A stretch of DNA of 52,236 nucleotides. It comes from Candidatus Dormiibacterota bacterium. GTDB taxonomy: Bacteria > Chloroflexota > Dormibacteria > Aeolococcales > Aeolococcaceae. The translations under genes and the position numbers were made by a program. The notes under the pieces were generated by a model. It was not told where the DNA came from. It made no database searches and saw only the letters and a list, made by a program, of their open reading frames with translations. The stretch covers positions 1 through 52,236 of the forward strand of contig JBAPOS010000134.1 of the NCBI GenBank assembly GCA_049279755.1, written 5' to 3'. This document shows, in pieces, positions 610-37,917 of the stretch. The first letter of the stretch is position 1. Every line of letters starts with the position of its first letter.

Positions 610-1415
610 CGCTGGTGCACCGCGAGCAGCGGTTCGACGCGGTCCCAGGTCAACACCGGGCCGTCGGCGCAGACGAACACCGATCCCAGCTGGCAGTGCC
701 CGCACTGCGCAATCGCGCACTGCATATTCCGCTCCATGGAAACACGGATTCCCGAGGGCGGCATACCGCGTTCCATCAGCGCGAGGGCGGTGAACCGCAT
801 CATCACTTCAGGGCCGCAGATCATGGCGATGCCTGCGGGATCACAGTGGATACGCGGAAGCACGTTCGTGACCACGCCGACGGTGCCCCGCCAGCCAGGC
901 GTCGCGCGGTCGACCGTGACATGCACGGAGAGGTCGTCGCGCGCTCGCCACGCGTCGACCTCCTCTTTGAATGCGAGTTCCTCGGGCGTGCGCGTGCCGA
1001 TCACCACCTCCACCTCGCCGAAGCGGTCTCGCTGCGAGATGACCTGAGTGATCACCGAGCGAAGCGGCGCCAGACCGATCCCGCCGGCGACGATCACCAG
1101 GTCACGCCCCGCCGCAGTGTCCAGTCCCCAATCGGACCCGAACGGACCGCGGAGGCCGAGGCTGTCACCGGGCTGCAGCTCGCACAGGGCGCGCGAGACC
1201 GCGCCGACGTTGCGCACCGTGTGGGCGATCGGTCCGTCCGCGACCGGGTTCGCGCTGATGGAGATCGCCACCTCACCGACGGCGTAGGCGTAGAGCATGT
1301 TGAACTGGCCGGCGGCGTAGCGCAGTCGGGAGCCGTTGGTCGCCTCGAGGAGGAGGGTCACCGCGTCCGAGGTCTCCTGGCGGCGCCCGACAACCAGATG
1401 GCTCACCGGCGTCAT
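606..1415 (-). CDS. Hydrogenase gamma-type subunit: FAD/NAD(P)-binding oxidoreductase with C-terminal Fe-S site
   Basis: ORF 606..1778 trimmed to ATG 1415 ([12 protein letters not shown]...), because the longer form would overlap the cNMP gene. Ferredoxin-reductase-like motifs are present ([22 protein letters not shown]), plus a C-terminal [12 protein letters not shown]...C cluster. The stop is coupled to the next gene. Confidence 0.8.
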
Positions 1416-7779: not shown

Positions 7780-9167
<1,388 letters not shown>

Positions 9168-9411
9168 GATGCACCTCCTGCGTCCCAGCGCATGTCCAGG
9201 TCAAGTCACGGTTCAACTCTTGCACCGAGATTCGTCCGCAACCAGGGCCGAAGGTCACATGGTCGTTGCCACGCCTTCAGGGCGGCGAAGTTATGGTTGC
9301 CCTTCAGGGACGTGCGACCATCCTGTGCCTGTGACCTGAGGGGAATACCGAGGTTCTCCAACCCTCGTCCCATCAGGCGCCCTGTCGAAGGTCCCGTCCA
9401 TATCGTGGCGA

Positions 9412-10416
9412 ATGACCCTGGCGAGCTGCTACGTCGCTTGGTGTGATGGTCACATGAACGAATATGCGACCGCTCCTACTGACATTGCGGTGAGCACTGC
9501 CGTCATGAATCGCCCTCGAAGCGATCCTTGGAAGAGCATCCTGGTGGCCACCGATGGATCTGCCGACGCCCATGCGGCGCTCCGTGCGGCTGCGGATCTC
9601 GCGTGCCGGTCCGGTGCGACTCTGACCCTCGTCACCGCATACGACCTTCCCGCATCCGCCCTCTACGCATTTCCCGCCCTCATGGGTGTCACGGACCGGT
9701 CGCCCTATGAGACGGCGGCGTTCACGCTGCTCGAAGCCGAGCGCTCCACGGCCGCGGCGCTTGGTGCCGTTGTCGACGAGGTGTACGCCGGCATGGGAGC
9801 GATCGACGAGGTGAGCCTCCGGGTGGCAGAACAGATCGACGCCGACCTCATCGTCGTGGGGAACCGCGAGCTCCGCGGGTTCAAACTGCTGGTAGGCGGG
9901 AGCACGTCCGCGGGAGTTGTGCACGGTGCCCACTGCCCGGTGCTGATCGTGCGCGGCGAGGAGCGATCCTGGCCGCCACACGGCGTCGTCGTCGGTTTCG
10001 ACCACTCGCCCGCATCCCGCCGAGCTGCGCAGGCTGCCATGGCGATCACGCAGCTGTATCCGGACACGGCCATGACGCTGATCCAGGTGCTCGCGGACAC
10101 TGCGGTCCATCCGAACGCGGTGCTTCGCACACCCGAGCGTGTTGACACCGAACACGCGAGCCTTGATCGGGAGGCAGCGGCGCTTGGTCGGCGCATCGGC
10201 CGTCCGGTCGGCACCGTCCTCGCCGTCGGCGATCCTGCCGACGTGCTGACCAAACGCAGCGACAACGCAACGACGCCCGACCTCGTCGTCGTCGGCACGC
10301 GCGGACTTGGCAGCGTTCGGCGCCTCGTGCTCGGGAGCGTTTCGACCAAAATCCTCCACTCCGGCCACAGCCCGCTGCTGGTGATGCCCGAGAACGGAAC
10401 GCCGGAATCCTCGTAG
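9412..10416 (+). CDS. Tandem universal stress protein (two UspA domains)
   Basis: SILVATDGSADAHAAL...LIVVGNRELRG...GSTSAGVVHGAHCPVLIVR, then a second copy ending LVVVGTRGLG...GSVSTKILHSGHSPLLVM. Start is uncertain (in-frame ATGs at 9412, 9454, 9505). Confidence 0.8.
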   Translation: MTLASCYVAWCDGHMNEYATAPTDIAVSTAVMNRPRSDPWKSILVATDGSADAHAALRAAADLACRSGATLTLVTAYDLPASALYAFPALMGVTDRSPYETAAFTLLEAERSTAAALGAVVDEVYAGMGAIDEVSLRVAEQIDADLIVVGNRELRGFKLLVGGSTSAGVVHGAHCPVLIVRGEERSWPPHGVVVGFDHSPASRRAAQAAMAITQLYPDTAMTLIQVLADTAVHPNAVLRTPERVDTEHASLDREAAALGRRIGRPVGTVLAVGDPADVLTKRSDNATTPDLVVVGTRGLGSVRRLVLGSVSTKILHSGHSPLLVMPENGTPESS

Positions 10417-10542: not shown

Positions 10543-12111
10543 ATGACACTTGTGATGGAACCCCTCGTCGAGACAAAGCCCGTAGACAGCAAGGTGTACA
10601 CGCCGCCCGGCCAACCTGGCAGCCTGGTCGAAGTCAAGCCCTTGTACGGCAACTTCATTGGCGGCCGCTGGGTGCCACCGGTCTTTGGCAAGTACATGCC
10701 AGACATCAGCCCAGTCAACGGCAAGGTGTTCTGCGAAGTGGCGAAATCGACAGCGGAAGATGTTGAGCTCGCGCTGGACGCCGCACACGCTGCAAAGGAC
10801 GCCTGGGGCGCCACCTCGCTCGCAGAACGCGCGGCCGTTCTGAATCGGATCGCCGATGCCATCGAGGCCAACCTCGAGATGCTGGCGGTGGCGGAGAGTT
10901 GGGAGAACGGCAAGCCGGTGCGCGAGACGCTCAATGCGGACCTGCCGCTCGCGGTTGATCACTTCCGGTACTTCGCCGGCGCGACTCGTTCCCTGGAAGG
11001 TCGAAGCACAGAGATTGACAAGGACACAGTCGCGTACCACTTCCACGAACCCCTCGGAGTGGTCGGGCAGATCATTCCGTTCAACTTCCCGCTGCTGATG
11101 GCCGCGTGGAAGATCGCTCCCGCATTGGCGGCAGGAAACTGCACGGTGCTCAAGCCGGCATCCCCGACGCCCTGGTCGATTCTCAAGCTCGCCGAGGTCA
11201 TCGAAGACATCGTGCCTGCAGGCGTGATCAACATCGTGACCGGCCCGGGTGGCGAGATTGGCAAGGCGCTCGCATCCAGCCCGCGCATCGCGAAGATCGG
11301 CTTCACCGGTGAGACCGTCACCGGCCGCTTGATCATGCAGTACGCCGCCCAGAACCTCATCCCCTCGACCGTCGAGTTGGGCGGCAAGTCGCCGAACATC
11401 TTCTTCGACGATGTGATGGCCGCGGATGATGATTTCCTCGACAAGGCGATCGAAGGCCTGGTTCTCTACGCCTTCAACAAGGGCGAGGTCTGCACTTGCC
11501 CGTCACGTGCCCTGATCCAGGAGTCGATCTACGACCGGTTCATGGAGCGCTGCCTGGCTCGCATCCACGCGATCAAGCAGGGCAACCCGCTCGACGTGAG
11601 CACGATGGTCGGCGCGCAGAACTCCGCGCAGCAACTCGAGAAGATCGAATCCTACGTCAAGATCGGACGTGGGGAAGGCGCGAAGTGCCTGATCGGCGGC
11701 GCACGCCCGAGCGTCGACGCGGAACTCGCGGATGGGTACTACTTCCAGCCAACAGTCCTGGAAGGCAACAACAAGATGCGTGTCTTCCAAGAGGAGATCT
11801 TCGGCCCGGTCCTCGCGGTGACAACCTTCAAGGACGAAGCCGAGGCAATTGCGCTCGCCAACGACACCCTGTACGGCCTCGGAGCCGGTGTCTGGACGCG
11901 CGATGGAAGCCGAGCCTACCGCATGGGACGCGCCATCAAAGCCGGGAGGGTCTGGACCAACTGCTACCACCTGTACCCGGCGGGTGCCGCCTTCGGCGGA
12001 TACAAGATCTCGGGCGTCGGGCGCGAGAATCACCAGATGATGCTGGAGCACTACTCGCAGACGAAGAATCTGCTGGTGAGCTACAGCGCCAAGGCGCTGG
12101 GCTTCTTCTAG
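10543..12111 (+). CDS. NAD(P)-dependent aldehyde dehydrogenase
   Basis: ORF 10537..12111. ATG 10543 lies 7 nt after GGAGG (10531-10535). Motifs [11 protein letters not shown] and catalytic-Cys [12 protein letters not shown]. Confidence 0.9.
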
Positions 12112-13073: not shown

Positions 13074-14702
13074 GTGGTTGAGGCTACCTCTCCGTCGAGC
13101 CTTGGCAAGCGCCACGAGACTCGCGGGTCGGGTAATCGCATTACCAACTCAAGCGCGCAGGTTGGGTTGCTCGGCTTCGCGGCAGCATCAGCGATCGGGT
13201 TCGCTGCGGCAATCGTCGCGGCGCCATACGCCAGACCGCACCTGACCATGGCGGGGGCAATCGTCGCAGGTGTCACGGTGGCGATCGCGATTCCTGTGTC
13301 GCGCTGGCCGCGTCTGGCGCCCCTGGTCGTCGTGACACTTCTCTACTACGCTGCTTTGACGCTCCTTGTTCTAGGTGCCGGCGGCCAAAGCGAGGGGCTT
13401 CTCGCTTTGGCCGCTATTCCCCTCGTCGCAAGTGCCTTGTACGGTCGGCCAAGCCTGACGATCACCGCTCTCGTCGCAGCCACAGCGACCCTGGGCTCCG
13501 ATGGACTCATCAACCGGCTCAGCGTCGCGGACTACGCGCAACTCCTCGTCGTGTGGCCGATCACCGGAGTGGGGATTGCGTACGCAACGTATCAACTGCG
13601 CTCCCGACTCGAACAGACGGTGAACGAGCGCTCAGAAACCATTCAGCACGACGCGGTGCTGGCGTTGATCGCTGATGAAATGTACGCCACACTCGACAAA
13701 GACGAAGTCCTCCGGCTCGGGGTCCAGAGCGCTGCCCGCCTCACCGATCTGGCGGGTCAGGCCCAGTCGAAGGCAGGCTTCTTCCTCGTTGACGGCGATC
13801 GAGCGACTCTGGTCGCCTTCTACGATCCTGATCTGGGCGGCGCAGCCCTTTCCGACAAGCGAATCGGTGACCTGAGCGTCTCGCTCCTGAGCACGGTCCA
13901 TTTGCATCAGGCGGCTGCGAGTCATGAGGATCGGCTCTTCATTCTTGATCACAATAGCTACGCGCCGCCGGAAATCGCGGCGATGCTCGCCGAACTCGAC
14001 GTTGAGACCGCAATCGTGCAACTGGTCCGCGTCGGAGACGATGCCAGCGGGCTCCTCGCCGTCTTCAAGAGCGATGCATCGGCGCCGGGATACAGCCACG
14101 CACAAGGCGAGTGGCTCCGAGCCTTGACGCCGCTCTTCGAGCTTGCCCTCTCGAGAGCGTTGGTCTTTGAGGCAGCGGCCACCATCGACGAATTGACGGG
14201 CATCGCCAATCGCCGTGAGTTCGATCGCCGGTTGGCGAGTACGCCTCGGCGCGCTGAATACTCGCTCCTCGCCATCGATATCGACAAGCTTAAGGTGATG
14301 AACGACACATACGGGCACAAGGCAGGGGATGAGTTGCTGCAGGCTGTGGCTGGAGCGTTGCGACGATCCGTGCGTCGTGGGGACGTGGCCGCGAGGGTGG
14401 GCGGTGATGAGTTTTCGGTCCTCCTGTCCGACGCCGATCCCGGTCATGCCGAGGCTGTTGCCGACCGGGTCCTTGCCGAGTTGGCAAAGAGCAGCGTGCG
14501 CGACCAGCTGCCAAGCGTCAGCATCGGAATCGCCGGTTTCGATAGCGGCGAGGACGCCGCGGCGCGGATCGCGGCCGCGGACCGGGCCCTCTACGAGGCA
14601 AAGGCTGCCGGTGGGAATCGAGCCGCTCATGCTGCGGGAACCAACATCCCAACCCAGATCTGCGCCCCTGTGGCTCTACCCGGTGTGGTTGGCGATGTGT
14701 GA
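13074..14702 (+). CDS. Membrane-anchored diguanylate cyclase (multi-TM N-terminus, GAF-like middle, GGDEF)
   Basis: GTG start. The hydrophobic N-terminal third is followed by DELTGIANRREFDRRL and an intact GGDEF (RVGGDEFSVLL). An RxxD I-site (RRGD) lies five residues upstream. Confidence 0.85.
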   Translation: MVEATSPSSLGKRHETRGSGNRITNSSAQVGLLGFAAASAIGFAAAIVAAPYARPHLTMAGAIVAGVTVAIAIPVSRWPRLAPLVVVTLLYYAALTLLVLGAGGQSEGLLALAAIPLVASALYGRPSLTITALVAATATLGSDGLINRLSVADYAQLLVVWPITGVGIAYATYQLRSRLEQTVNERSETIQHDAVLALIADEMYATLDKDEVLRLGVQSAARLTDLAGQAQSKAGFFLVDGDRATLVAFYDPDLGGAALSDKRIGDLSVSLLSTVHLHQAAASHEDRLFILDHNSYAPPEIAAMLAELDVETAIVQLVRVGDDASGLLAVFKSDASAPGYSHAQGEWLRALTPLFELALSRALVFEAAATIDELTGIANRREFDRRLASTPRRAEYSLLAIDIDKLKVMNDTYGHKAGDELLQAVAGALRRSVRRGDVAARVGGDEFSVLLSDADPGHAEAVADRVLAELAKSSVRDQLPSVSIGIAGFDSGEDAAARIAAADRALYEAKAAGGNRAAHAAGTNIPTQICAPVALPGVVGDV

Positions 14703-29127: not shown

Positions 29128-29316
29128 GACCGCTATGGTAGGCGCATCAACCTGCGGCGGTCGCTCCGGGACGGCGAACTGTGGATTGGTAGGTCATTGG
29201 TCACAACCCCGGGTGCTGCACGTCATGCGCTTCCCGCGACGTTCTCCCCTTCTGGGAACTGACTCCTAACAGACATACTCCCGCTTGACACCCACACGAC
29301 ATCACGGAGGTTGCCA

Positions 29317-29466
29317 ATGGACGCGCCGGCTCCATACATCCACTGGGGCTTCATTCTCATCTCCCTGCCGAACTTCATTCTCATCTGTGTGATGGTGCTG
29401 CTGTTCGTGATTGCGCTCGTCGCGCCGTTCCCGTCGCATCGGCAGAAGGAACCCCACGATGACTGA
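29317..29466 (+). CDS. Small membrane protein (49 aa), below the ORF-track size cutoff
   Basis: GGAGG (29306-29310) lies 6 nt before ATG 29317. Hand translation: MDAPAPYIHWGFILISLPNFILICVMVLLFVIALVAPFPSHRQKEPHDD. The stop (29464-29466) overlaps the cytochrome b start (ATG 29459). Confidence 0.55.
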   Translation: MDAPAPYIHWGFILISLPNFILICVMVLLFVIALVAPFPSHRQKEPHDD

Positions 29467-30136
29467 CGACGCCGCACCGGTGACCGTCGACCCGTCGGTC
29501 GCGACCGCGCCGTCCGACTTGGACGATGAGAGCGGATGGACGGCCTCTGTACGCCGCCGTGTGGAGAAGACGCTGCCGATCACCGAATTGCTCCCCACCA
29601 AACAGCCGGCGTACATTGGCTCCTGGGTCTACGTTTTCGGTGTCGTGACCATTGCCGCGCTTTTCTGGTTGGTGATCAGCGGCGTGGTCCTCGCATTCTT
29701 CGGGTCGGCGTGGTGGCATGTGTCATCGGTCGGCCATTTCTTCAACAGCACCCACTTCTGGTCTGTCCAGATGTTCTTCATCTTCATGGTGCTCCACCTC
29801 TGGGGGCAGTTCTGGGGAGCCGGTTGGCGTGACGGGAGAGCCAAGACCTGGATGGTGGGTGTCGTGATCTTCTCGATCAGCGTGGGCACGGCTTTCACTG
29901 GATACGTGATCCAGCAGAACTTCGACTCGCAGTGGATCGCGATCAATGCCAAGGACGCGATCAACTCGACCGGCTTCGGTGGGCTCTTCAACGCACTCAA
30001 CTTCGGGCAGATGTACGGGCTGCACGTGATGCTGATGCCGATCGGCGTGACCCTGCTCGTGGTGCTGCACATCATTCAGGTGCGAGCCAAAGGCGTGGTT
30101 CGGCCGATCGACGATCCTTTCCAGGTGGCGCCGTGA
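29459..30136 (+). CDS. Cytochrome b, N-terminal (b6-type) di-heme domain protein
   Basis: In-frame ATG 29459 of ORF 29411..30136. Two His pairs are present: HFWSVQMFFIFMVLH (13 residues between) and HVMLMPIGVTLLVVLH (14 residues between). That spacing matches the b6/Firmicute type. Confidence 0.8.
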   Translation: MTDDAAPVTVDPSVATAPSDLDDESGWTASVRRRVEKTLPITELLPTKQPAYIGSWVYVFGVVTIAALFWLVISGVVLAFFGSAWWHVSSVGHFFNSTHFWSVQMFFIFMVLHLWGQFWGAGWRDGRAKTWMVGVVIFSISVGTAFTGYVIQQNFDSQWIAINAKDAINSTGFGGLFNALNFGQMYGLHVMLMPIGVTLLVVLHIIQVRAKGVVRPIDDPFQVAP

Positions 30137-31137
30137 AGGCGTCCAAGGTCGACAAGAAGACCTACTACCGCGGGATCCGGATGATTCCGTACGACCTCCT
30201 GAAGGAGGTCACGATCGCGATGCTCGGCGTCCTGGGAGTCGTGTTGCTGCTTTCAGCAGTGCTGTCCTCCCCCGATGTGCCCTCGGTGACGTTGCAGAGC
30301 TGGTCGAAAGCTAATCCCGTCGACTTCCTGACGACCGCTTCCGGCGAGCTCGCCGGCTCTACTGTTGTGGCCGGATATGGACCGCCTTACAACTCCGGGA
30401 CCGGCTCGGCGCAGAGCTGGGGCCCCCTGGCTCCCGAGCAGTGGGCGGGAGTGCACATTCCCATCAACGCTCCCAATGACTTCGTGCTCCAGCCACTCAC
30501 CCAGGCGACTGCCGGGGATGCGAACCTCGCGTCGGCGTTGACCACGTACAAGGCTGCAACGAGCGATCAACAGCAGAAATGGCTCACGAGTTACACGACC
30601 GCACTCGGTACTGCAACCGTCGCCGCGGACGGTACTGTGACGGTTCCCTCTGGGGACTTCGGGCCGGTGACGGTGCTCATGGATCGCATGCTCACGCTGG
30701 CCAGGTCTGGCGGTTTGGACGCGCTCCTGCTGACCAGCGACCACTTCTATCAGACGGATTTCTCCCGGGCGCTGTTATTCCTCGATGACGGCGGCTACAT
30801 CGCCGACCTCGCAACCCAGCAGAAACTCATCGGTAGCGACTGGGGTGTGATGAACGAGACAGGCCGCTATCCGGGGTCAGCATGGCTCTGGCTGTATACG
30901 ATGTGGTACCAGATTCCGCCTTTCAACTCGGCTACCGGATTCCTGGGCATCAGCGCTGCCAACACCGACCTGGCGGTTGTTGGCGTGATGCTCCTGCTGA
31001 CCGTGCTTCTCATGCTGGTTCCCTTCATTCCCGGCCTGCGTGATATCCCGCGTTGGATCCCGATTCACAGGCTGATCTGGCGCCGTCATTACGCGGAGAT
31101 GCGCCGAACTGGTGCCACAAACACCATGCAGCAATAG
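30133..31137 (+). CDS. Membrane protein, possibly a cytochrome b C-terminal / subunit-IV-like partner with a large extracytoplasmic insert
   Basis: The GTG at 30133 overlaps the cytochrome b stop (GTGA). Layout: N-terminal TM, a soluble region of about 230 aa, then C-terminal TMs. GSAWLWLYTMWYQIPPF is loosely reminiscent of the PEWY region. The functional call is tentative. Confidence 0.5.
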   Translation: MKASKVDKKTYYRGIRMIPYDLLKEVTIAMLGVLGVVLLLSAVLSSPDVPSVTLQSWSKANPVDFLTTASGELAGSTVVAGYGPPYNSGTGSAQSWGPLAPEQWAGVHIPINAPNDFVLQPLTQATAGDANLASALTTYKAATSDQQQKWLTSYTTALGTATVAADGTVTVPSGDFGPVTVLMDRMLTLARSGGLDALLLTSDHFYQTDFSRALLFLDDGGYIADLATQQKLIGSDWGVMNETGRYPGSAWLWLYTMWYQIPPFNSATGFLGISAANTDLAVVGVMLLLTVLLMLVPFIPGLRDIPRWIPIHRLIWRRHYAEMRRTGATNTMQQ

Positions 31138-31562
31138 AGGATCACAGCGATTGCGACGTGCATGGCCATCAAGACGCCGACTGCGTCCGCGGGCTGACCG
31201 CGGACGAGCAGCCATGCGTCTGGTAGGAACAGCGCCATGCTCGCTAGGACCATGAGGCATCCATAAAGCGCGCGAGGTGCGGAACTGATGCGCGTCAGCA
31301 GGGGCCAGCCTGCGGCACCGCCGAGGACGCCGATGATCGTGAGCTTCGCGTAGTCGTCGAACCGGAAATGCTCGTATCCCGCGGTTCCCGGAAAGACGCG
31401 CGTGCCGATGGCGACGAGCATCGCGTCGGCGGCCAGCGACCCGACCATTGCGACCATGGTTGCCACCGCCACCCGCATCGGCGTCGGTTGGCGGTGAGAC
31501 GGCGCCCAATCCAGGCGAGCGATCGCCAGGGTGCGATCGATCAACGAAACCTCTGCCCTCAC
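31089..31562 (-). CDS. Hypothetical 4-TM membrane protein (157 aa)
   Basis: GTG start at 31562. Hydrophobic segments throughout. The 3' end overlaps the preceding plus-strand gene by 49 nt. The 21-nt element lies 23 nt upstream. Confidence 0.55.
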   Translation of the reverse strand: MRAEVSLIDRTLAIARLDWAPSHRQPTPMRVAVATMVAMVGSLAADAMLVAIGTRVFPGTAGYEHFRFDDYAKLTIIGVLGGAAGWPLLTRISSAPRALYGCLMVLASMALFLPDAWLLVRGQPADAVGVLMAMHVAIAVILYCCMVFVAPVRRISA

Positions 31563-31585
31563 ACCCGCCAGCGTATCGCGGGGTC

Positions 31586-31606
31586 CCTTGCGGAACGGTG
31601 AAGGCC
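31586..31606. repeat. 21-nt conserved element, copy 1 (CCTTGCGGAACGGTGAAGGCC)
   Basis: Identical to 36361-36381 in the same orientation. It lies in the divergent region between the 4-TM gene (start 31562, minus) and the OmpR-type regulator gene (start 31668, plus). Confidence 0.9.
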
Positions 31607-31667
31607 TGGTCTTCGAGTAGGCTCAATTCGCGTGTGCCAGTCTCACCATTCCTCATGATGCGCAGCG

Positions 31668-32342
31668 ATGCATCTCCTCGTCGCTGAAGACGACGCGAAG
31701 CTCCGGGAGGTCCTTGCGCGGGGGCTTCGCACTGCGGGTTACACAGTCGACGTCGCTGCGCGTGGGGATGAGGCGCTCGAGCTGCTCCTAGAGAACGGCT
31801 ACGATGCAGCGGTTGTCGACTGGCGGCTGCCCGTCATGGATGGCATCGACGTCGTCATCGCGATCCGTTCCCGGCATCGATCCACCCCGGTGCTGATGCT
31901 CACGGCCCGCGACACACCGTCGGACCGTATTCGTGGTCTCGATGCGGGGTGCGACGACTACCTGGTCAAACCGTTTGACTTCCAGGAGATGCTCGCTCGT
32001 CTCCGCGCCCTGATGCGCCGCCCCGCAGCGACGCTCGGCGTGCGCCTTCGCGCCGGAGCGCTGAGCATCGATCCAGCGGAGCGATTGGCATCGGTGGACG
32101 GCGTCCCGCTGGCGCTGACGCCTACAGAATATGCGATCGTCGAGCTGCTTGTGCGCCGGAGCCCCGCGGTGGTGAGGCGAGAAACGATTGCAAACCATGC
32201 GTGGACGGATGCCCTCGACCCGATTGCGTCCAACAGCATCGACGTTCACGTCACCAGGCTGCGTGCCAAACTGGTTGGTGCGGGTCTCAGGCTTGAGGCG
32301 GTTCGGAGCGTCGGCTATCGGCTCGTGGAGCGGGAGTCGTGA
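31668..32342 (+). CDS. OmpR/PhoB-family response regulator
   Basis: MHLLVAEDDAKLREVL...AAVVDWRLPVMDG...LMLTARD receiver domain plus a winged-helix C-terminus (LTPTEYAIVELLVRR...VHVTRLRAKL). Confidence 0.9.
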   Translation: MHLLVAEDDAKLREVLARGLRTAGYTVDVAARGDEALELLLENGYDAAVVDWRLPVMDGIDVVIAIRSRHRSTPVLMLTARDTPSDRIRGLDAGCDDYLVKPFDFQEMLARLRALMRRPAATLGVRLRAGALSIDPAERLASVDGVPLALTPTEYAIVELLVRRSPAVVRRETIANHAWTDALDPIASNSIDVHVTRLRAKLVGAGLRLEAVRSVGYRLVERES

Positions 32343-33562
32343 GCACGCGACTGAGCAGGCATGCCCTGCGTGTTGCGCTCATCACAACAGCGGTGGTCGC
32401 CGGAGTCATGGTCGCGCTCTGCGTCGCGATCGACGTGATCGTGGCCCAGACACTCCGCTCGTCCGCCACCACACGCCTCACCAGCGAACTTGCACAATTG
32501 TCACAACGTCGCGGTGGACCAAATCTCGTGGAGCCCGACGTTGATGATCCCGTGCTTGTCTGGGAAGTGAACAACGCCGGCGCCATCGTCGCGTCCACGG
32601 CGGGAGCGCCAGTGCTCCCCTCGGGCGAGTTCGCCGCAAGCACACCCTCCGAGACGCAGATTGACGGTGCTGACATCCTGATCGCCGGTGTTGGCATTCC
32701 CACCGGCAGGCTCGTCGGCGCCGTGAGCCTGGGTAATGAGTCGAAGGCGCTCACGGCCCTGACGATCACCGAGGCCATCGTTGTACCAACCATCCTGGTC
32801 CTCGTGTTCGCGGGTGCGTTTGTGGTCGGGCGGCAGACGGCGGGACCGATCGAACGAGCGCGTCGGCGTCAACTCGAATTCACCGCTGACGCATCGCACG
32901 AGTTGCGCACGCCTCTCGCGGTGATCGAGGCCGAGACGACGCTTGCGCTGGCGACTCCCGAACGTACTGGCTCTGATGACGCCACGCTCCGCCGTGTTGC
33001 AGACGAGACGCACAGGATGCGCGCCATTGTCGAGGATCTGCTCTGGCTCGCTCGCTTCGACGCGCTGCCCCCCGATCCGGTCACGGAGCCCGTCGATCTC
33101 ATCACGGCGGCGGACGTTGGTGTGCAGCGGTTCATATCCATCGCCGGTCAGGCGCGGTTGCATCTCCAGAATCGCAGTGATGGAGCGGCGCTCGCCCTGG
33201 TCGACGCCCCCGCGGACTGGATCGATCGACTCATCGGCGTGCTACTCGACAACGCGTGCCGGTATACGCCGGCGAACGGCACGGTGAGCATCGTGGCATC
33301 GCGTGAGCGCGACCACGTGCGCCTGACCGTGAGCGACACCGGTCCGGGCATTCCGCTGGAACGGCGTGCGCGCATCTTCGAGCGGTTTCGCCGGGGGACG
33401 AGCGACGGTGGCGGAGCAGGACTCGGCCTCGCGATCGGTAATGCCATTGTGGAAGCGACCAAGGGTCGCTGGCAGATCGCGGACGTGCCGGGCGGCGGAA
33501 TCTCAGTCGGAGTCGTCTGGGCGCACTCGCGCACCCGGCTCGTCGATGGATTCCACCCATAG
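32339..33562 (+). CDS. Sensor histidine kinase (2 TM, HisKA, HATPase_c)
   Basis: 4-nt overlap with the regulator gene. H-box FTADASHELRTPLAVI. N/G boxes LLDNACRYTP, SDTGPGIP, GGAGLGLAI. Confidence 0.9.
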   Translation: MSTRLSRHALRVALITTAVVAGVMVALCVAIDVIVAQTLRSSATTRLTSELAQLSQRRGGPNLVEPDVDDPVLVWEVNNAGAIVASTAGAPVLPSGEFAASTPSETQIDGADILIAGVGIPTGRLVGAVSLGNESKALTALTITEAIVVPTILVLVFAGAFVVGRQTAGPIERARRRQLEFTADASHELRTPLAVIEAETTLALATPERTGSDDATLRRVADETHRMRAIVEDLLWLARFDALPPDPVTEPVDLITAADVGVQRFISIAGQARLHLQNRSDGAALALVDAPADWIDRLIGVLLDNACRYTPANGTVSIVASRERDHVRLTVSDTGPGIPLERRARIFERFRRGTSDGGGAGLGLAIGNAIVEATKGRWQIADVPGGGISVGVVWAHSRTRLVDGFHP

Positions 33563-33748
33563 GGCGGCCCTGGGACAGTCGGCAATTGCACGACGGGCGT
33601 GGTCGAGCACGTCATCGGAGAGCGCTCGCTGGTCGATGACGGGATACCCCCAGTCGTCCATCCGGATGCGCTCCGGGAACAGCTCGCCACACATGCCGTG
33701 CGCCTTGCACTTGATCGGATCGACGCGCAGTCGAACCCTCACCACCAA
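33503..33748 (-). CDS. Small ferredoxin (single-cluster type)
   Basis: VDPIKCKAHGMCGELFPE...AIADCPRAAL is the Cys pattern of actinobacterial 3Fe-4S/4Fe-4S ferredoxins. Its start overlaps the NuoF-like gene stop by 10 nt. The 3' end overlaps the kinase gene by 60 nt. Confidence 0.7.
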   Translation of the reverse strand: MVVRVRLRVDPIKCKAHGMCGELFPERIRMDDWGYPVIDQRALSDDVLDHARRAIADCPRAALWVESIDEPGARVRPDDSD

Positions 33749-35025
33749 CCGGCCTCTGTTGCAGGCACGGGCAGCAGCGGTCGCTGTCCTGAATACCTGC
33801 AGGGACCGCTCTTGAGGTGATGGCGAAGATCTGCTGCAAAGACCTCCATCGCGCTGGAGAGGAAGAGCATCGCCCCATCCGGATGCCTGCAGGCGCCCCG
33901 GCCGCGGATGTCGTGCGACCAGCGGACGAGGAGGTCCAGCGCAGCGGGGCGGGCTCGGCCGGTTGCCACCTTGTGGAACGTCTCAGCTATTGCCGGAAGG
34001 CCCACATGGCAAGGTCCGCACTGGCCCGCGGTCTGACTGGCGAGAAACGTGAGTACTCGATCAGTCTCGCTGATCCCGCACGTTGAGGCCGTTGCGACCA
34101 CGAGCACGCCGGTGCCCAACGAAACGCCGACGGATTGCAGAGAGTGCGCGTCGATCGTCTTGCTCCATATGCGATCCGCCGCGACCCATCGGCCGAAATA
34201 CCCACCGAGCAGCACCGTCGCCGGCTCGCCGTCGACACCACCGGTCCGGTCGACGATGGCCCCGACGGTGGTGTCGCACGTCGCCTCGAGGACGCCCGGT
34301 GTTCGCACCGCCCCACTGACCGTCAACAGTGCGGTCCCAGGCGATCGCGGCGTGCCGACCGATCGAAACCACGGTGCACCGAAGCGGGCGATGAGCGCTG
34401 CATGGGCGAGCGTCTCCACGTTCTGGACAAGGGTCGGCAGGCGATCGACGCCGCTTTGAAAGGGACGGGGAGGGACAACCTTCGGCTTGGCGAGATGGCC
34501 GGAGAGGCGCGCGACCAACGCTGTCTCCTCGCCGGCGACGTATCGGTTCGGCCCGACCAGCACCTCGATGAATCGATCGTTGTCGTCTCGCCGCCTGCGC
34601 TCCCTGATCGCCGCGCTCAGCGCCGCCTCCACGTCGCTGTGGGACTTCGTCGTATAGATGACCACGCGTCGAGCACCGACCGTCTCCGCTGCGTGCTCGA
34701 GACCGTCGAGCACAAGGTGAGGCCGGTAGGTCAGCAGGAACCGATCCTTGAAGCTCGCCGGTTCGCACTCGGCGGCGTTGGCGACCACGATCGCGTCGCC
34801 ATCGCGCTTCGTGTGTTCCTTGACCGCCCGCCACTTTCGGCCGGTCGGAAAGTCGGCCCCGCCGCGCCCGCACAGTCCGCTGGCGTCGAGGGCGTCGAGC
34901 AGCGCACTCGACTCCGGTTGCGGACGCGGGCCGAAGCTGGCGAGGTGCGCGTCCAGGTCCTCGGGAACCGGACGCTGCGGGAGCAGACGATGGGCGGGGT
35001 TGCCGACGTCGATCGAGAGGCTCAC
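33739..35025 (-). CDS. NuoF-like flavoprotein (NADH dehydrogenase subunit F-type FMN/NADH site, SLBB, 4Fe-4S region) without NuoE/NuoG partners
   Basis: ORF 33739..35112 trimmed to GTG 35025, which overlaps the stop of the upstream gene (GTGA). GLCGRGGADFPTGRKW resembles the NuoF GRGGAGFPTG motif. SQTAGQCGPCHVG is the Fe-S region. Confidence 0.75.
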   Translation of the reverse strand: MSLSIDVGNPAHRLLPQRPVPEDLDAHLASFGPRPQPESSALLDALDASGLCGRGGADFPTGRKWRAVKEHTKRDGDAIVVANAAECEPASFKDRFLLTYRPHLVLDGLEHAAETVGARRVVIYTTKSHSDVEAALSAAIRERRRRDDNDRFIEVLVGPNRYVAGEETALVARLSGHLAKPKVVPPRPFQSGVDRLPTLVQNVETLAHAALIARFGAPWFRSVGTPRSPGTALLTVSGAVRTPGVLEATCDTTVGAIVDRTGGVDGEPATVLLGGYFGRWVAADRIWSKTIDAHSLQSVGVSLGTGVLVVATASTCGISETDRVLTFLASQTAGQCGPCHVGLPAIAETFHKVATGRARPAALDLLVRWSHDIRGRGACRHPDGAMLFLSSAMEVFAADLRHHLKSGPCRYSGQRPLLPVPATEAGWW

Positions 35026-36041
35026 GCTGTTGCCTTCTGCGTCGTGAGCGTTCCGCCAATCGCGCCGTTGCCCTCGTCGACGATCTGGATCGCGGCGAGC
35101 ACGCCGCCGCACCGGGCGGTGACCGAGGTGTTGCCGATCGTCGCCGCCGACTGGCAGACCTGTCCACCCGATCGGGTGACCGTGAGCGTCCCGCTGCCGT
35201 CGGCATTGGCGACGATCACGAGTTGGAGCGCATGGTCACGCGTATCGGTGAGAGTGGCGGTCGCATGGGTGGGCGAACTCACCAACGTACCGATGAGTGG
35301 ATCGTTCAGACCGGCGGGGAGTTGCGTCACCGGAGCGGGCGCAGTCGTGGGCGCAGCCCCGGAGCGTGCCAGCAGATCCGCCGGAGTGCCGGCCGCCTTG
35401 GCCCAGCCATGCTGCAGAGGGCCGACGGCCATCCAGACGATCAACGCACCGATGGAGACGACGCTGCCGGCGATGCCCAGGAAGCGCAGGGCGGTGAACC
35501 TCGGCCCGGCGTGCGCAAGGCGCCAAACCAGCGCGGCAATAACGGCCGCCACGCAGACGGCGACCAGACCCATCGCCCAGAGCGACTTGGTGTCCGTCCC
35601 CGTTCCCAGGCCGTGGACCACGCCGACCGGCCAGCTCGCGTACGCGAAGAGGTGCACTCCCCGCCACGTCCGCCAGCCGAGCCGGTGCCGTACGAGACTC
35701 GTCGCGGTGATCGCAATCAACAACTCGAATCCGACCACCCCGAGGCCGAGCCACACGGGACGGTACGACGCGATGAAGGGCACGAACGCGTCGAGGAAAT
35801 TGAGCTTCGCGAATGGGTCGATAATCGACGTGAGGATGTGAATGACGAGAAACAAGCCAACCAGCAGTGAGACGTTGCGATGCAACGACTGGACCACGAA
35901 CCTCGGCCACTCAGGGCGGCTCTCACGCGACGACGTCAATACCCCCAGAACAACGCTGGCGCTCAGGAGGATGAGGGCGGTGTAGCCGCTGGCACGGGTG
36001 GCGTACCACATCGGGGTGGGGCCGGCGAGTGCCGCTAGCAA
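35022..36041 (-). CDS. Ferric-reductase-like (YedZ/MsrQ-type) di-heme transmembrane protein with an uncharacterised C-terminal domain
   Basis: Six hydrophobic segments. His pairs sit in SLHRNVSLLVGLFLVIHIL and GVHLFAYASWPVGVVHGLG. A C-terminal, non-hydrophobic region of about 110 aa has no recognised family. Confidence 0.7.
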   Translation of the reverse strand: MLAALAGPTPMWYATRASGYTALILLSASVVLGVLTSSRESRPEWPRFVVQSLHRNVSLLVGLFLVIHILTSIIDPFAKLNFLDAFVPFIASYRPVWLGLGVVGFELLIAITATSLVRHRLGWRTWRGVHLFAYASWPVGVVHGLGTGTDTKSLWAMGLVAVCVAAVIAALVWRLAHAGPRFTALRFLGIAGSVVSIGALIVWMAVGPLQHGWAKAAGTPADLLARSGAAPTTAPAPVTQLPAGLNDPLIGTLVSSPTHATATLTDTRDHALQLVIVANADGSGTLTVTRSGGQVCQSAATIGNTSVTARCGGVLAAIQIVDEGNGAIGGTLTTQKATA

Positions 36042-36053
36042 CGGACGGCCCGG

Positions 36054-36338
36054 TCAGGATCCGCCGGAGACTGTCACGGGCGCACCGTAGCCGTACTGCG
36101 GCGCTTGGATCGGTGCGCTGATGCCCGGTTGCGTGATGCCGCCGTTGTCGGTGACACCTGGCTGGGTGGCCGGCGTCGTGGTAATCGTGTGGCCGGGAAG
36201 GCTGGTCGCCGCCACGAGCGCAAACACCGCGGTGAATGCCGTCGCCCCGACTGCTGTGCAGATAGTCAACCTGCGCGCGCGGGCCAGGCCGAGGTCCCTT
36301 CGAAGGCGGGCGGAATCCAACTGCGACTGTCGCGGCAT
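36054..36338 (-). CDS. Small membrane-anchored/exported Thr-Pro-Gly-rich protein (94 aa)
   Basis: ATG 36338. Arg-rich N-terminus, one TM (ICTAVGATAFTAVFALVAA), then TTTPATQPGVTDNGGITQPG... It ends 12 nt before the ferric-reductase-like gene. The 21-nt element lies 22 nt upstream. Confidence 0.5.
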   Translation of the reverse strand: MPRQSQLDSARLRRDLGLARARRLTICTAVGATAFTAVFALVAATSLPGHTITTTPATQPGVTDNGGITQPGISAPIQAPQYGYGAPVTVSGGS

Positions 36339-36360
36339 GAGAAGAGCCTACCCGGAGCTG

Positions 36361-36381
36361 CCTTGCGGAACGGTGAAGGCC
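36361..36381. repeat. 21-nt conserved element, copy 2 (CCTTGCGGAACGGTGAAGGCC)
   Basis: Identical to 31586-31606. It lies between the GT87 gene stop (36407) and the start of the 94-aa gene (36338). Confidence 0.9.
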
Positions 36382-36406
36382 CGCCCCAGCACGCGAGGGA
36401 TCGGCA

Positions 36407-37789
36407 CTAAGGCACCGAGAGCGCGCGCTCCCGGGTGAGTGTCTGCAGGGTCGGGGCGTCGGTCGGCTCCACGCGGTGCCGCAGGGTGATGGTCAGCGCC
36501 ACCAGCATCGCCGCTGCGGAGATCGCCGGGAGCGATGTCACCTGGGTGAGCAGCCACCACCAGCCGGTGTGGCTGAGTGCGACCAGCTGCGCCGAGGACG
36601 ACACGTTGGCGATCAGCACCGGCGCGAGCACTGCGACTGCGACCACGAACGTTGCGGTCGCCACCGTCAGCACACGTGAGCGCCACGCCCTGTCCGCTGC
36701 CATGAGTCCCACTGCTGCGAAGACGATGATGATCGCGGTCACGTAGTGCGCGTACCAGGTGATCGTGCTGGCGAGCAGCATGAAGAGAGTCCCGGCAGCG
36801 AACTCGGCGCCGCTGACTGCTTGGTTTCGAGTCCGGGGGCCGACGCCGAAATAGAGCAAGCCAAGCATGATGATGAGGACCGCATAGGTCACCAGGCTGA
36901 TCATCAGCGAACCTGATTGCGGGATCAGGACGGCGTGTCCAAAGAGACGGCTCGCAACTCCGCTGATCGACTGGTTGTACAGCCACCCGTCCTGCGCGGA
37001 GAGCACGGGGAGCACGCGGGTCACGTACTCATGCAGTGTTGCGGTTCCGAACGCGGCGACGCCGACTGCGAGTCCGGCAACGACTGTGACGGCACACGCC
37101 GCAGCCGCCCTCCACCACCGGCGGCGGATGATCAAGACGACCATGACAATCGGTGCGAGCTTGATCGAGGCCGCGATGCCGATCAGCACGCCGAACCGCG
37201 TCCGGTGCTCGTGGGTCCACGCATGGAGCGCGAACGCGAGCAACAGGAAGATCACGGGATTCATCTGACCGTGCCAGTAGTTGTACGTGGCCGCCGAGAA
37301 CAGAAAGGTGACCAGCGCGCTGATCTCGAGACGCGGCCACCCTCGAGGCAACAGCGTGTAGGCCGCAATGCCCGTGGCCGCGGCGGTACAGGCGACGGTC
37401 AGCCAGAGCCAGAGCGTCGCAGCGGCAGCCGCCGGAACCCAGGCGAGCGGCTGAACGAGAAAGGCGACGACCGGTGGGTAGTCGAATCCGCTCAGGGCCA
37501 CATTTGGCCGCTGGTGGATGAATTGTGCGTACAGGTCAGTGTGACTGGCGACGGCATGAGCGGCCGCCAGATAGGCGCTGAAATCCTCGAATTCGCCGGC
37601 AAAGATGCCCCTGATGGGTGCGATCACGAAGGTGATCAGGCCAGCTATCACCGAGGCGATCGCGGCGGCACGGAGCACGAGCAATCCCAGTGCGCGGGCG
37701 CGGGCATCCGGACGAAACCGACGGTGGGTTCCGGCGGGGCCGCCCGTGCCGGGCAGGCTGAGGTGTCCTGGGTCGATAACCTCCGCCAT
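36407..37789 (-). CDS. GT87-family (DUF2029) polyprenol-phosphate-sugar-dependent glycosyltransferase
   Basis: ORF 36407..37888 trimmed to ATG 37789 (MAEVIDPGH...). It is a multi-TM protein with FDYPPVVAFLVQPLAW near the N-terminus, as in mycobacterial mannosyltransferase-like GT87 proteins. Confidence 0.7.
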   Translation of the reverse strand: MAEVIDPGHLSLPGTGGPAGTHRRFRPDARARALGLLVLRAAAIASVIAGLITFVIAPIRGIFAGEFEDFSAYLAAAHAVASHTDLYAQFIHQRPNVALSGFDYPPVVAFLVQPLAWVPAAAAATLWLWLTVACTAAATGIAAYTLLPRGWPRLEISALVTFLFSAATYNYWHGQMNPVIFLLLAFALHAWTHEHRTRFGVLIGIAASIKLAPIVMVVLIIRRRWWRAAAACAVTVVAGLAVGVAAFGTATLHEYVTRVLPVLSAQDGWLYNQSISGVASRLFGHAVLIPQSGSLMISLVTYAVLIIMLGLLYFGVGPRTRNQAVSGAEFAAGTLFMLLASTITWYAHYVTAIIIVFAAVGLMAADRAWRSRVLTVATATFVVAVAVLAPVLIANVSSSAQLVALSHTGWWWLLTQVTSLPAISAAAMLVALTITLRHRVEPTDAPTLQTLTRERALSVP

Positions 37790-37917
37790 CAACGGTCGAG
37801 TTTGATCGGGGTACGGGGTGCCGCGTGCCCTGGGTTGCCAAACCGTTACTCGGGTCGCCCAATGTCGTAGGCCCATGTAAAGATGCACGCCATGCGTCGT
37901 GGTCCCAGGATGACGCC

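Follow-up and report, generated by a model that had tools for sequence, protein, structure and literature searches.

We analysed contig JBAPOS010000134.1 of a Candidatus Dormiibacterota bacterium (GenBank assembly GCA_049279755.1; all 52,236 nucleotides (nt), hereafter the window) and in it an exactly repeated 21-nt element, CCTTGCGGAACGGTGAAGGCC, whose two copies lie on the plus strand at 31586-31606 and 36361-36381. Read on the minus strand (GGCCTTCACCGTTCCGCAAGG), the element precedes two minus-strand genes, one encoding a DUF6069-like membrane protein and the other a 94-amino-acid protein (sp94) that opens an electron-transfer operon. Between the copies lies a two-component system (TCS) made of a response regulator (RR) and a histidine kinase (HK). 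We refer to the copy on the DUF6069 side (copy 1 of an earlier note on this DNA) as box 2 and to the copy on the sp94 side (copy 2 of that note) as box 1.

The gene layout was obtained from Pfam scans together with gene calls of near-identical contigs (Table 1). These confirmed the genes proposed in the earlier note (a gene for a protein with four transmembrane (TM) segments, an OmpR-type RR and HK pair, a 94-amino-acid gene and an operon of ferric-reductase-like, NuoF-like and ferredoxin genes), as well as its statement that the second copy heads this operon, small-protein gene included. The score of the four-TM protein against DUF6069 is under the Pfam gathering cut-off (24.5 versus 27.2 bits); the coding sequence for its N-terminus (MRAE...) is conserved among relatives. 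The source names of homologues point to Candidatus Dormibacterota, and the solved structures nearest to the RR are those of BasR/PmrA (closest, E-value 2e-39), PrrA, PhoP, RegX3 and MtrA.

Table 1. Features of the locus, in order of their position in the window
Feature	Coordinates	Strand	Remarks
DUF6069-like four-TM membrane protein, 157 amino acids	31089..31562	-	Pfam DUF6069, E-value 3e-5; inferred leaderless start at GTG 31562
-10-like hexamer TACGCT, DUF6069 promoter	31570..31575	-	10 nt downstream of box 2, 7 nt upstream of GTG 31562
Box 2, 19-nt core CCTTCACCGTTCCGCAAGG	31586..31604	-	Divergent intergenic region between DUF6069 gene and RR gene; kept there in 30 species
-10-like hexamer TAGGCT, divergent RR-HK operon	31618..31623	+	13 nt from the box 2 core, 44 nt upstream of the RR ATG
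OmpR/PhoB-family RR, 224 amino acids	31668..32342	+	Pfam receiver (Response_reg) and winged-helix Trans_reg_C; predicted phospho-acceptor D51
HK, 407 amino acids	32339..33562	+	HisKA and HATPase_c; two TM segments around a periplasmic sensor of about 110 amino acids
Fer4_15 small ferredoxin, 80 amino acids	33503..33745	-	Closes the operon and converges with the HK gene; gene calls and Pfam
NuoF-like flavin mononucleotide (FMN)/NADH-binding iron-sulphur protein, 428 amino acids	33739..35025	-	Pfam PF01512 and PF10589
MsrQ/YedZ-like ferric-reductase-type di-haem membrane protein, 329 amino acids	35022..36011	-	Pfam PF01794 (Ferric_reduct); source names of homologues
sp94, single-TM protein, 94 amino acids	36054..36338	-	First gene of the operon; invariant C-terminal tail PVxVSGGS
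-10-like hexamer TAGGCT, operon promoter	36345..36350	-	10 nt downstream of box 1, 6 nt upstream of ATG 36338
Box 1, 19-nt core CCTTCACCGTTCCGCAAGG	36361..36379	-	Heads the electron-transfer operon; kept upstream of the sp94 gene in 36 species
GT87	36407-37888	-	Pfam scans and gene calls

We searched the window for further matches to the 21-mer with up to 3 mismatches allowed and found none, and 0 of 100 dinucleotide shuffles gave any match. The 21-mer is the longest exact direct repeat of the window, the remaining shared words being 16 nt or shorter, and about 0.002-0.005 exact 21-mer pairs are expected from the window's composition. On the minus strand, 23 nt separate the end of the first copy from GTG 31562 and 22 nt the end of the second from ATG 36338, and the sequences on either side of the two copies are unrelated and diverge at once. 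The description given in the earlier note was therefore borne out: an exact pair in the same orientation with these two spacings, diverging flanks and a recurrence far beyond chance. Its statement that the pair is not part of a larger duplication agrees with the unrelated flanks and with the behaviour of the copies in other genomes, described below.

Conservation and promoter geometry of the box

Twenty MsrQ-like homologues were aligned, and the alignment was used to fetch 79 related loci (cited below by L numbers) from species-level genome representatives, which were read at 20 kb each. The MsrQ-like protein is 55-95% identical across about 36 Dormibacterota species, most of which keep the gene order sp94, MsrQ-like, NuoF-like and ferredoxin, with the HK-RR pair convergent and the DUF6069 gene divergent. 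In constant orientation, the motif precedes sp94 in 36 species and DUF6069 in 30, which makes 66 sites. The search of related genomes proposed in the earlier note, with distance and orientation recorded, was made here on these loci and returned the same two places in the same orientation across 36 species, and the element proved to be conserved upstream of orthologous genes, where the note had taken a lack of conservation, together with a lack of binding by the regulator, to speak against it. At two Chloroflexota loci (L046 and L047) the same box was not found upstream of the orthologous operon or of the RR gene, and repeat finding there was uninformative.

The matrix built from the 66 sites defines a 19-nt core, CCTTCACCGTTCYGCAAGG. 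Information content approaches its maximum across this core and falls almost to zero on either side. Within the core, the blocks TTCACC and GCAAGG are near-invariant, with their centres 11 bp apart (one helical turn), and are separated by a variable stretch of 5 bp (G11 in 54 of 66 sites, T13 in 55, and at position 15 C in 36 and T in 23). Selection acts on 19 of the 21 nt; both outer G's vary freely in relatives, so that their match between the two copies of this genome is a coincidence. Within other genomes the two copies differ at unconstrained positions, so what keeps them alike is selection acting on the core and neither duplication nor gene conversion.

Each core in the window is followed, exactly 10 nt downstream, by a hexamer of the form TANNNT (Table 1). 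This spacer is 10 nt long in 66/66 sites (36/36 for box 1 and 30/30 for box 2), and the hexamer reads TANNNT in 64 of them and CANNNT in the other 2. The 30 box-2 hexamers comprise 24 TAGGCT or TACGCT, 5 other TANNNT sequences and a single CAAGCT. A start codon lies 6-8 nt past the hexamer at 36/36 box-1 sites and 21/30 box-2 sites, ATG and GTG swapping at the same start codon among relatives, and the gap is too short for a Shine-Dalgarno sequence. We scanned positions 31000-37000 of the window and found no TTGACA-like -35 element, no canonical -35/-10 sigma-70 promoter and no intrinsic terminator. Among the genes of the neighbourhood, some carry clear Shine-Dalgarno leaders and others share the pattern of a -10 hexamer beside the start codon, which makes leaderless expression plausible for this organism.

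Because the -10 hexamer stands 6-8 nt before the start codon without a Shine-Dalgarno sequence, the geometry indicates that both promoters are leaderless, and we placed the transcription starts accordingly. Counted from these inferred starts, the 21-mer spans the -35 region, from roughly -43 to -23, and the position of the 19-nt core (about -41 to -23 of both promoters) indicates that it takes the place of a -35 element. The equal spacing of the two copies to their start codons would then arise because both genes appear leaderless, with the start fixed relative to the promoter. The resulting promoter model is box-N10-TANNNT-N6-7-start, leaderless.

At the other 9 box-2 sites (L030, L033, L034, L035, L038, L039, L040, L042 and L045; e.g. 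L033 14405-14480), a leaderless mini-open reading frame (mini-ORF) of about 9 codons begins at the start position. In L030 and L033, the two that were read codon by codon, the TGA of the mini-ORF overlaps the GTG of the DUF6069 gene (GTGA). This suggests that the clade has a leaderless upstream ORF with translational coupling, replacing the N-terminal extension seen in the window.

Box 2 is absent or decayed in three loci. A LysE-like exporter gene replaces DUF6069 in L031 (~10890-10985) and L032 (~14335-14410), where box 2 is absent, and in L020 (14416-14470) DUF6069 is deleted, box 2 has decayed (GCAAGG to GTCAGG) and its -10 has gone. All three retain TAGGCT as the RR-side -10, and since box 2 goes with DUF6069 while this hexamer stays, box 2 is maintained for the DUF6069 promoter. 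On the other strand, 20 of 30 loci have the conserved -10-like sequence of the RR operon (GAGTAnGCT) at 13-14 nt from the core, 4 have it at 26-28 nt, and 6 lack it. In L015, L018, L021, L026 and L029, GAGTAnGCT is missing and no more than 11-14 nt separate the RR start codon from the core; a protein bound there would overlap the RR promoter or start, so that autoregulation in these loci would be different and probably negative.

We scanned metagenomes with the pattern TTCACCNTTCNGCAAGG-N10-TANNNT and classed the matches by tblastn, yielding 69 matches in 66 stretches: 26 in front of sp94, 24 in front of DUF6069 and divergent from the RR gene, 18 in unrelated DNA and 1 elsewhere. The 18 unrelated matches are mostly in DNA of low guanine-cytosine (GC) content, human-gut contigs included, and were taken to be chance matches, an assumption made without a computed expectation. 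Among GC-rich matches, 50/51 are at the two known contexts, and no third site was found in about 0.8 Mb of related loci. Matches are thus almost confined to two contexts, which excludes an element of the REP type (repetitive extragenic palindromic) and points to a very small regulon of 2-3 promoters.

The sole GC-rich match outside the two contexts lies in L101 at 967-999 (plus strand) and reads CACCTTCACCGTTCTGCAAGG-N10-TAGCCT-N7-ATG, the full extended consensus with leaderless geometry. An 18-codon leaderless mini-ORF there overlaps the start of a gene for a 350-amino-acid lipoprotein (ORF 1057-2109) that resembles a phosphoesterase family by eye (motif VLVVMEENKGY). This gene is a possible third member of the regulon.

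Candidate regulator and competing explanations

The earlier note had proposed the element as a candidate operator for the neighbouring regulator. The first half of this proposal, a cis-regulatory protein-binding site, stands on the conservation over 36 species, the fixed 10-nt spacing and the recurrence in two contexts, and we regard the element as very probably a protein-binding promoter element. The second half, the RR as the binder, is a plausible inference that we hold to be moderately likely, because the RR gene is adjacent, box 2 lies in the divergent region between the RR and DUF6069 genes, and the geometry is that of a pho box. No regulator other than the RR-HK pair is conserved in the cluster; in 30 loci the pair is found between the two boxes, and the winged-helix domain of the RR is conserved across the same species as the box. 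We also compared the recognition helix of the RR with the variants of the box, and both were too conserved for an informative comparison.

Dimers of OmpR/PhoB-family regulators bind sites that overlap or replace the -35 element and consist of two blocks spaced by one helical turn; at activated promoters the downstream protomer touches sigma region 4 and the beta flap (PMC4971064, PMC2695467, PMC11825685). Blocks spaced by 11 bp with a variable middle fit the footprint expected of such a winged-helix dimer. As a whole, the explanation that we consider best, and reasonably probable, is that the element is the operator of the adjacent OmpR/PhoB-type RR and acts by pho-box-like class II activation. 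The kinase (32339-33562) would phosphorylate the RR (31668-32342), and a dimer of the phosphorylated RR would bind the 19-bp box and recruit RNA polymerase, standing in for the contact between sigma region 4 and the -35 element. The targets switched on would be the sp94/MsrQ-like/NuoF-like/ferredoxin operon and the gene for the DUF6069 membrane protein. As box 2 lies 13 nt upstream of the -10 of the RR-HK operon, there may also be feedback on the regulator's own operon; an effect of box 2 on this operon is likely, in a geometry that is not fixed, and autoregulation as such is uncertain.

Several points weigh against this explanation. The two blocks are not direct repeats (TTCACC and GCAAGG are alike at 1/6 positions, or 2/6 when shifted by one), whereas most OmpR/PhoB operators are, so the fit to the family here is by geometry only. 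The basal species L036, L037 and L041 keep a diverged box upstream of sp94, with the N10-hexamer-start geometry retained, and have no RR or HK gene within 10 kb; their binder would be either encoded elsewhere or a different protein. The spacing between box 2 and the RR promoter varies among loci: 13-14 nt, 26-28 nt, or a box that adjoins the RR start codon. The organism, besides, is uncultured. A site at -41 to -23 could equally block RNA polymerase, and between activation and repression we put the chances of activation at about even.

One of the closest parallels is the E. coli pho box, which lies 10 bp upstream of the -10 element, the same spacing as in this box. Both are composite sites of about 18-22 bp with two blocks of 6-7 bp one helical turn apart, the regulator here is of the same family as PhoB, and in both cases the operon of the cognate RR and HK has a site in its own promoter region. 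Both also adjoin the -10 region and substitute for the -35 element (PMC4971064, PMC2695467). The sequence is unrelated to that of the pho box (CTGTCAT-N4-CTGTCAT), and membership was rejected since the box does not hold two copies of CTGTCAT. It further differs in that its blocks are not direct repeats, its promoters are leaderless, its regulon is apparently very small (2-3 promoters) and a link to phosphate is lacking.

The Streptomyces PHO box consists of 11-nt direct repeat units, G(G/T)TCAYYYR(G/C)G, of which PhoP needs at least 2, and C at position 1 is unfavourable (PMC2275107); PhoP of Streptomyces and Mycobacterium binds as a head-to-tail dimer that touches sigma-A region 4 and the beta flap (PMC2275107, PMC11825685). 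The present box shares the 11-bp periodicity and the overlap with the -35 element, and its CTTCACC fits 6/7 conserved positions of one repeat unit. It differs in having C at position 1 in 60/66 sites and, as second unit, YGCAAGG, which is not a repeat unit. Membership was rejected because there is one GTTCAY-like unit only, with the disfavoured C at position 1, and the second unit is absent. The PmrA/BasR box, which we take to be YTTAAK-N5-YTTAAK, has the same 6-N5-6 layout as CTTCAC-N5-YGCAAG, and its half-site presumably agrees with each half here at about 4/6 positions, which are not the same positions in the two halves.

Among the alternatives, the one that survives best is an operator of another transcription factor, such as a global redox or iron regulator, whose gene lies elsewhere, with the neighbouring TCS as a co-regulated passenger. 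The unlike half-sites, together with the weak inverted repeat formed by the outer CCTT/AAGG ends (the only one in the box), could suit a symmetric dimer of another family; the basal species hold the box upstream of sp94 without an adjacent TCS, and box 2 tracks DUF6069 and not the RR promoter. The box matches neither the E. coli pho box nor the Streptomyces PHO box (PMC4971064, PMC2275107), and a global regulator would be expected at many promoters, whereas the metagenome scan shows essentially two contexts; in 30 species, no regulator apart from the TCS is syntenic with the boxes. We consider this alternative unlikely. The earlier note had recognised no named operator or riboswitch in the element, and this holds for the operators that we compared and for Rfam, which gave no match. 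We also take the box to be unlike the PmrA, Rex, Crp/Fnr, HAIR, IdeR and DosR operators and unlike sigma-54 and extracytoplasmic-function (ECF) promoters. A literature search for the block sequences returned primer-type noise only.

If an alternative sigma factor itself recognised the sequence as a promoter element (TANNNT plus an unusual -35 or extended part), with no separate activator involved, this would explain why the spacing to the -10 hexamer is rigid in 66/66 sites and why a canonical -35 is absent; GTTCC-N12-GGGTAG at box 1 also loosely resembles promoters of the sigma-B/F type. The box seems too large for this, however: 19 conserved bp in two blocks spread over two helical turns far exceed the ~6 bp contacted by sigma region 4, and the part aligned with -35, GTTCY, is its least conserved. 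The GGGTA-like -10 is moreover not kept at box 2, which reads CGATAC, and the cluster holds no sigma or anti-sigma gene. We therefore judge direct reading by a sigma factor to be improbable.

The earlier note had also offered a shared 5'-leader RNA structure, with a CCTT...AAGG stem, as an explanation of the element. The ends could indeed pair, and the orientation relative to both genes is the same, but each of the three inferred -10 hexamers is downstream of the box, which would therefore not be expected to be transcribed in the mRNA of either gene or in that of the RR. The element folds at -1.1 kcal/mol, with 160/200 shuffles at least as stable, and the extended regions have folding z-scores of -0.2 to +0.8. 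Changes in the stem (C4 to G in 6 sites and G21 to A in 3) are never compensated, and Rfam gave no match even at an E-value of 1 or below. A leader RNA or riboswitch was thus rejected, with hardly any probability left to it. The same verdict applies to a REP-like dispersed repeat or a functionless trace of recent local duplication or gene conversion, for which the exact 21-nt identity within one genome could speak, since there are two copies per locus over about 0.8 Mb of related DNA, always at the same two places and in the same orientation, the copies differ at free positions in other genomes, their flanks are unrelated and the GC-rich metagenome matches fall at the same two contexts.

The electron-transfer operon and its relatives

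MsrQ-like clusters for flavinylation-associated extracytosolic electron transfer include, according to passages of Meheust et al. (2021, PMC8238504), a rare NuoF-like subtype of 31 clusters. The operon of the window, which would belong to this subtype, resembles such clusters in having a PF01794 membrane cytochrome beside a PF10589 NuoF-like protein; in basal Dormibacterota, Chloroflexota and Actinomycetota, an ApbE gene stands next to the orthologous operon. The operon of the window differs in having no FMN_bind-domain protein and, instead, a small single-TM protein that ends in VSGGS (TSGAS in some Actinomycetota). Control by a TCS finds no mention in those passages of PMC8238504.

We found no ApbE gene in the window or its clade, where tblastn gives only a 52-amino-acid match (E-value 3.5e-4). 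ApbE (FAD:protein FMN transferase) is encoded directly upstream of the MsrQ-like gene in basal Dormibacterota (L036, L037 and L041, ~9057-9970), in Chloroflexota (L046, 641-1714) and in nearly all Actinomycetota relatives (most of L049-L089, ~9100-9950), and a gene for an sp94-like small TM protein usually lies directly upstream of ApbE. Members of the sp94 family from Dormibacterota, Chloroflexota and Actinomycetota begin with a basic segment, which is followed by a single TM helix, a linker rich in P, G, S and T and, at the extreme C-terminus, the invariant tail (V/T)SG(G/A)S (examples at window 36054-36338 (minus strand), L041 8726-9046, L087 8523-8939 and L061 8642-8959). The tail is VSGGS in Dormibacterota and TSGAS, which is the canonical [S/T]GA[S/T] flavinylation motif, in several Actinomycetota. 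On these features, sp94 is probably a minimal tail-flavinylated extracytoplasmic electron carrier without an FMN_bind domain.

In Solirubrobacterales, the sp94-like gene lies directly downstream of an HK gene. The intergenic region between the two in L049-L087 (e.g. L087 8489-8530 and L071 8465-8505) carries a conserved element of another sequence, ATTCTCAY-N4-NYCTTAC-N8-9-TGATKCT, which has direct-repeat character with an 11-bp period and is present in a single copy in each 20-kb locus; it may be the corresponding operator of the TCS encoded there. This is consistent with a recurrent control of the electron-transfer module by TCSs, and the small-protein/ApbE/MsrQ-like/NuoF-like/ferredoxin module is found beside TCSs in both Chloroflexota and Solirubrobacterales.

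Two further observations concern the neighbouring genes. Convergent with DUF6069, the plus strand of the window at 29300-31137 encodes a 49-amino-acid protein, a 225-amino-acid protein with a Cytochrome_B domain and a 334-amino-acid protein without a Pfam match, a trio that is syntenic in many relatives and has no box upstream. In the near-identical strains or assemblies L001, L005, L007 and L008, the HK is called as a truncated protein of 275 amino acids (~13604-13998, corresponding to ~32340-32735 of the window) and the locus length is off by 1 nt; the cause would be a frameshift within the part encoding the sensor, or else an error in sequencing.

The box is previously undescribed and yet of a familiar, conventional kind, an operator of an RR or other transcription factor that replaces the -35 element of its target promoters. 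More tentatively, and as a doubtful possibility, a dedicated TCS would read an asymmetric 19-bp box with unrelated half-sites and switch on an NADH-driven transmembrane electron-export module with a tail-flavinylated carrier of the sp94 type. If true, the unrelated half-sites would be an unusual recognition mode for an OmpR/PhoB dimer.

To our knowledge, Dormibacterota, a phylum of soil bacteria, have no cultured representative, and we know of no experimentally defined promoter or regulon in this phylum, although no search aimed at one was made. The locus gives what would be the first concrete promoter and regulon model for Dormibacterota, composed of one TCS, 2-3 promoters and an MsrQ-like/NuoF-like electron-export operon, and the 66-site matrix is directly usable for regulon annotation in complete metagenome-assembled genomes. 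The model ties a poorly understood class of flavinylation-associated electron transfer to an environmental sensor, which may help to reveal its purpose.

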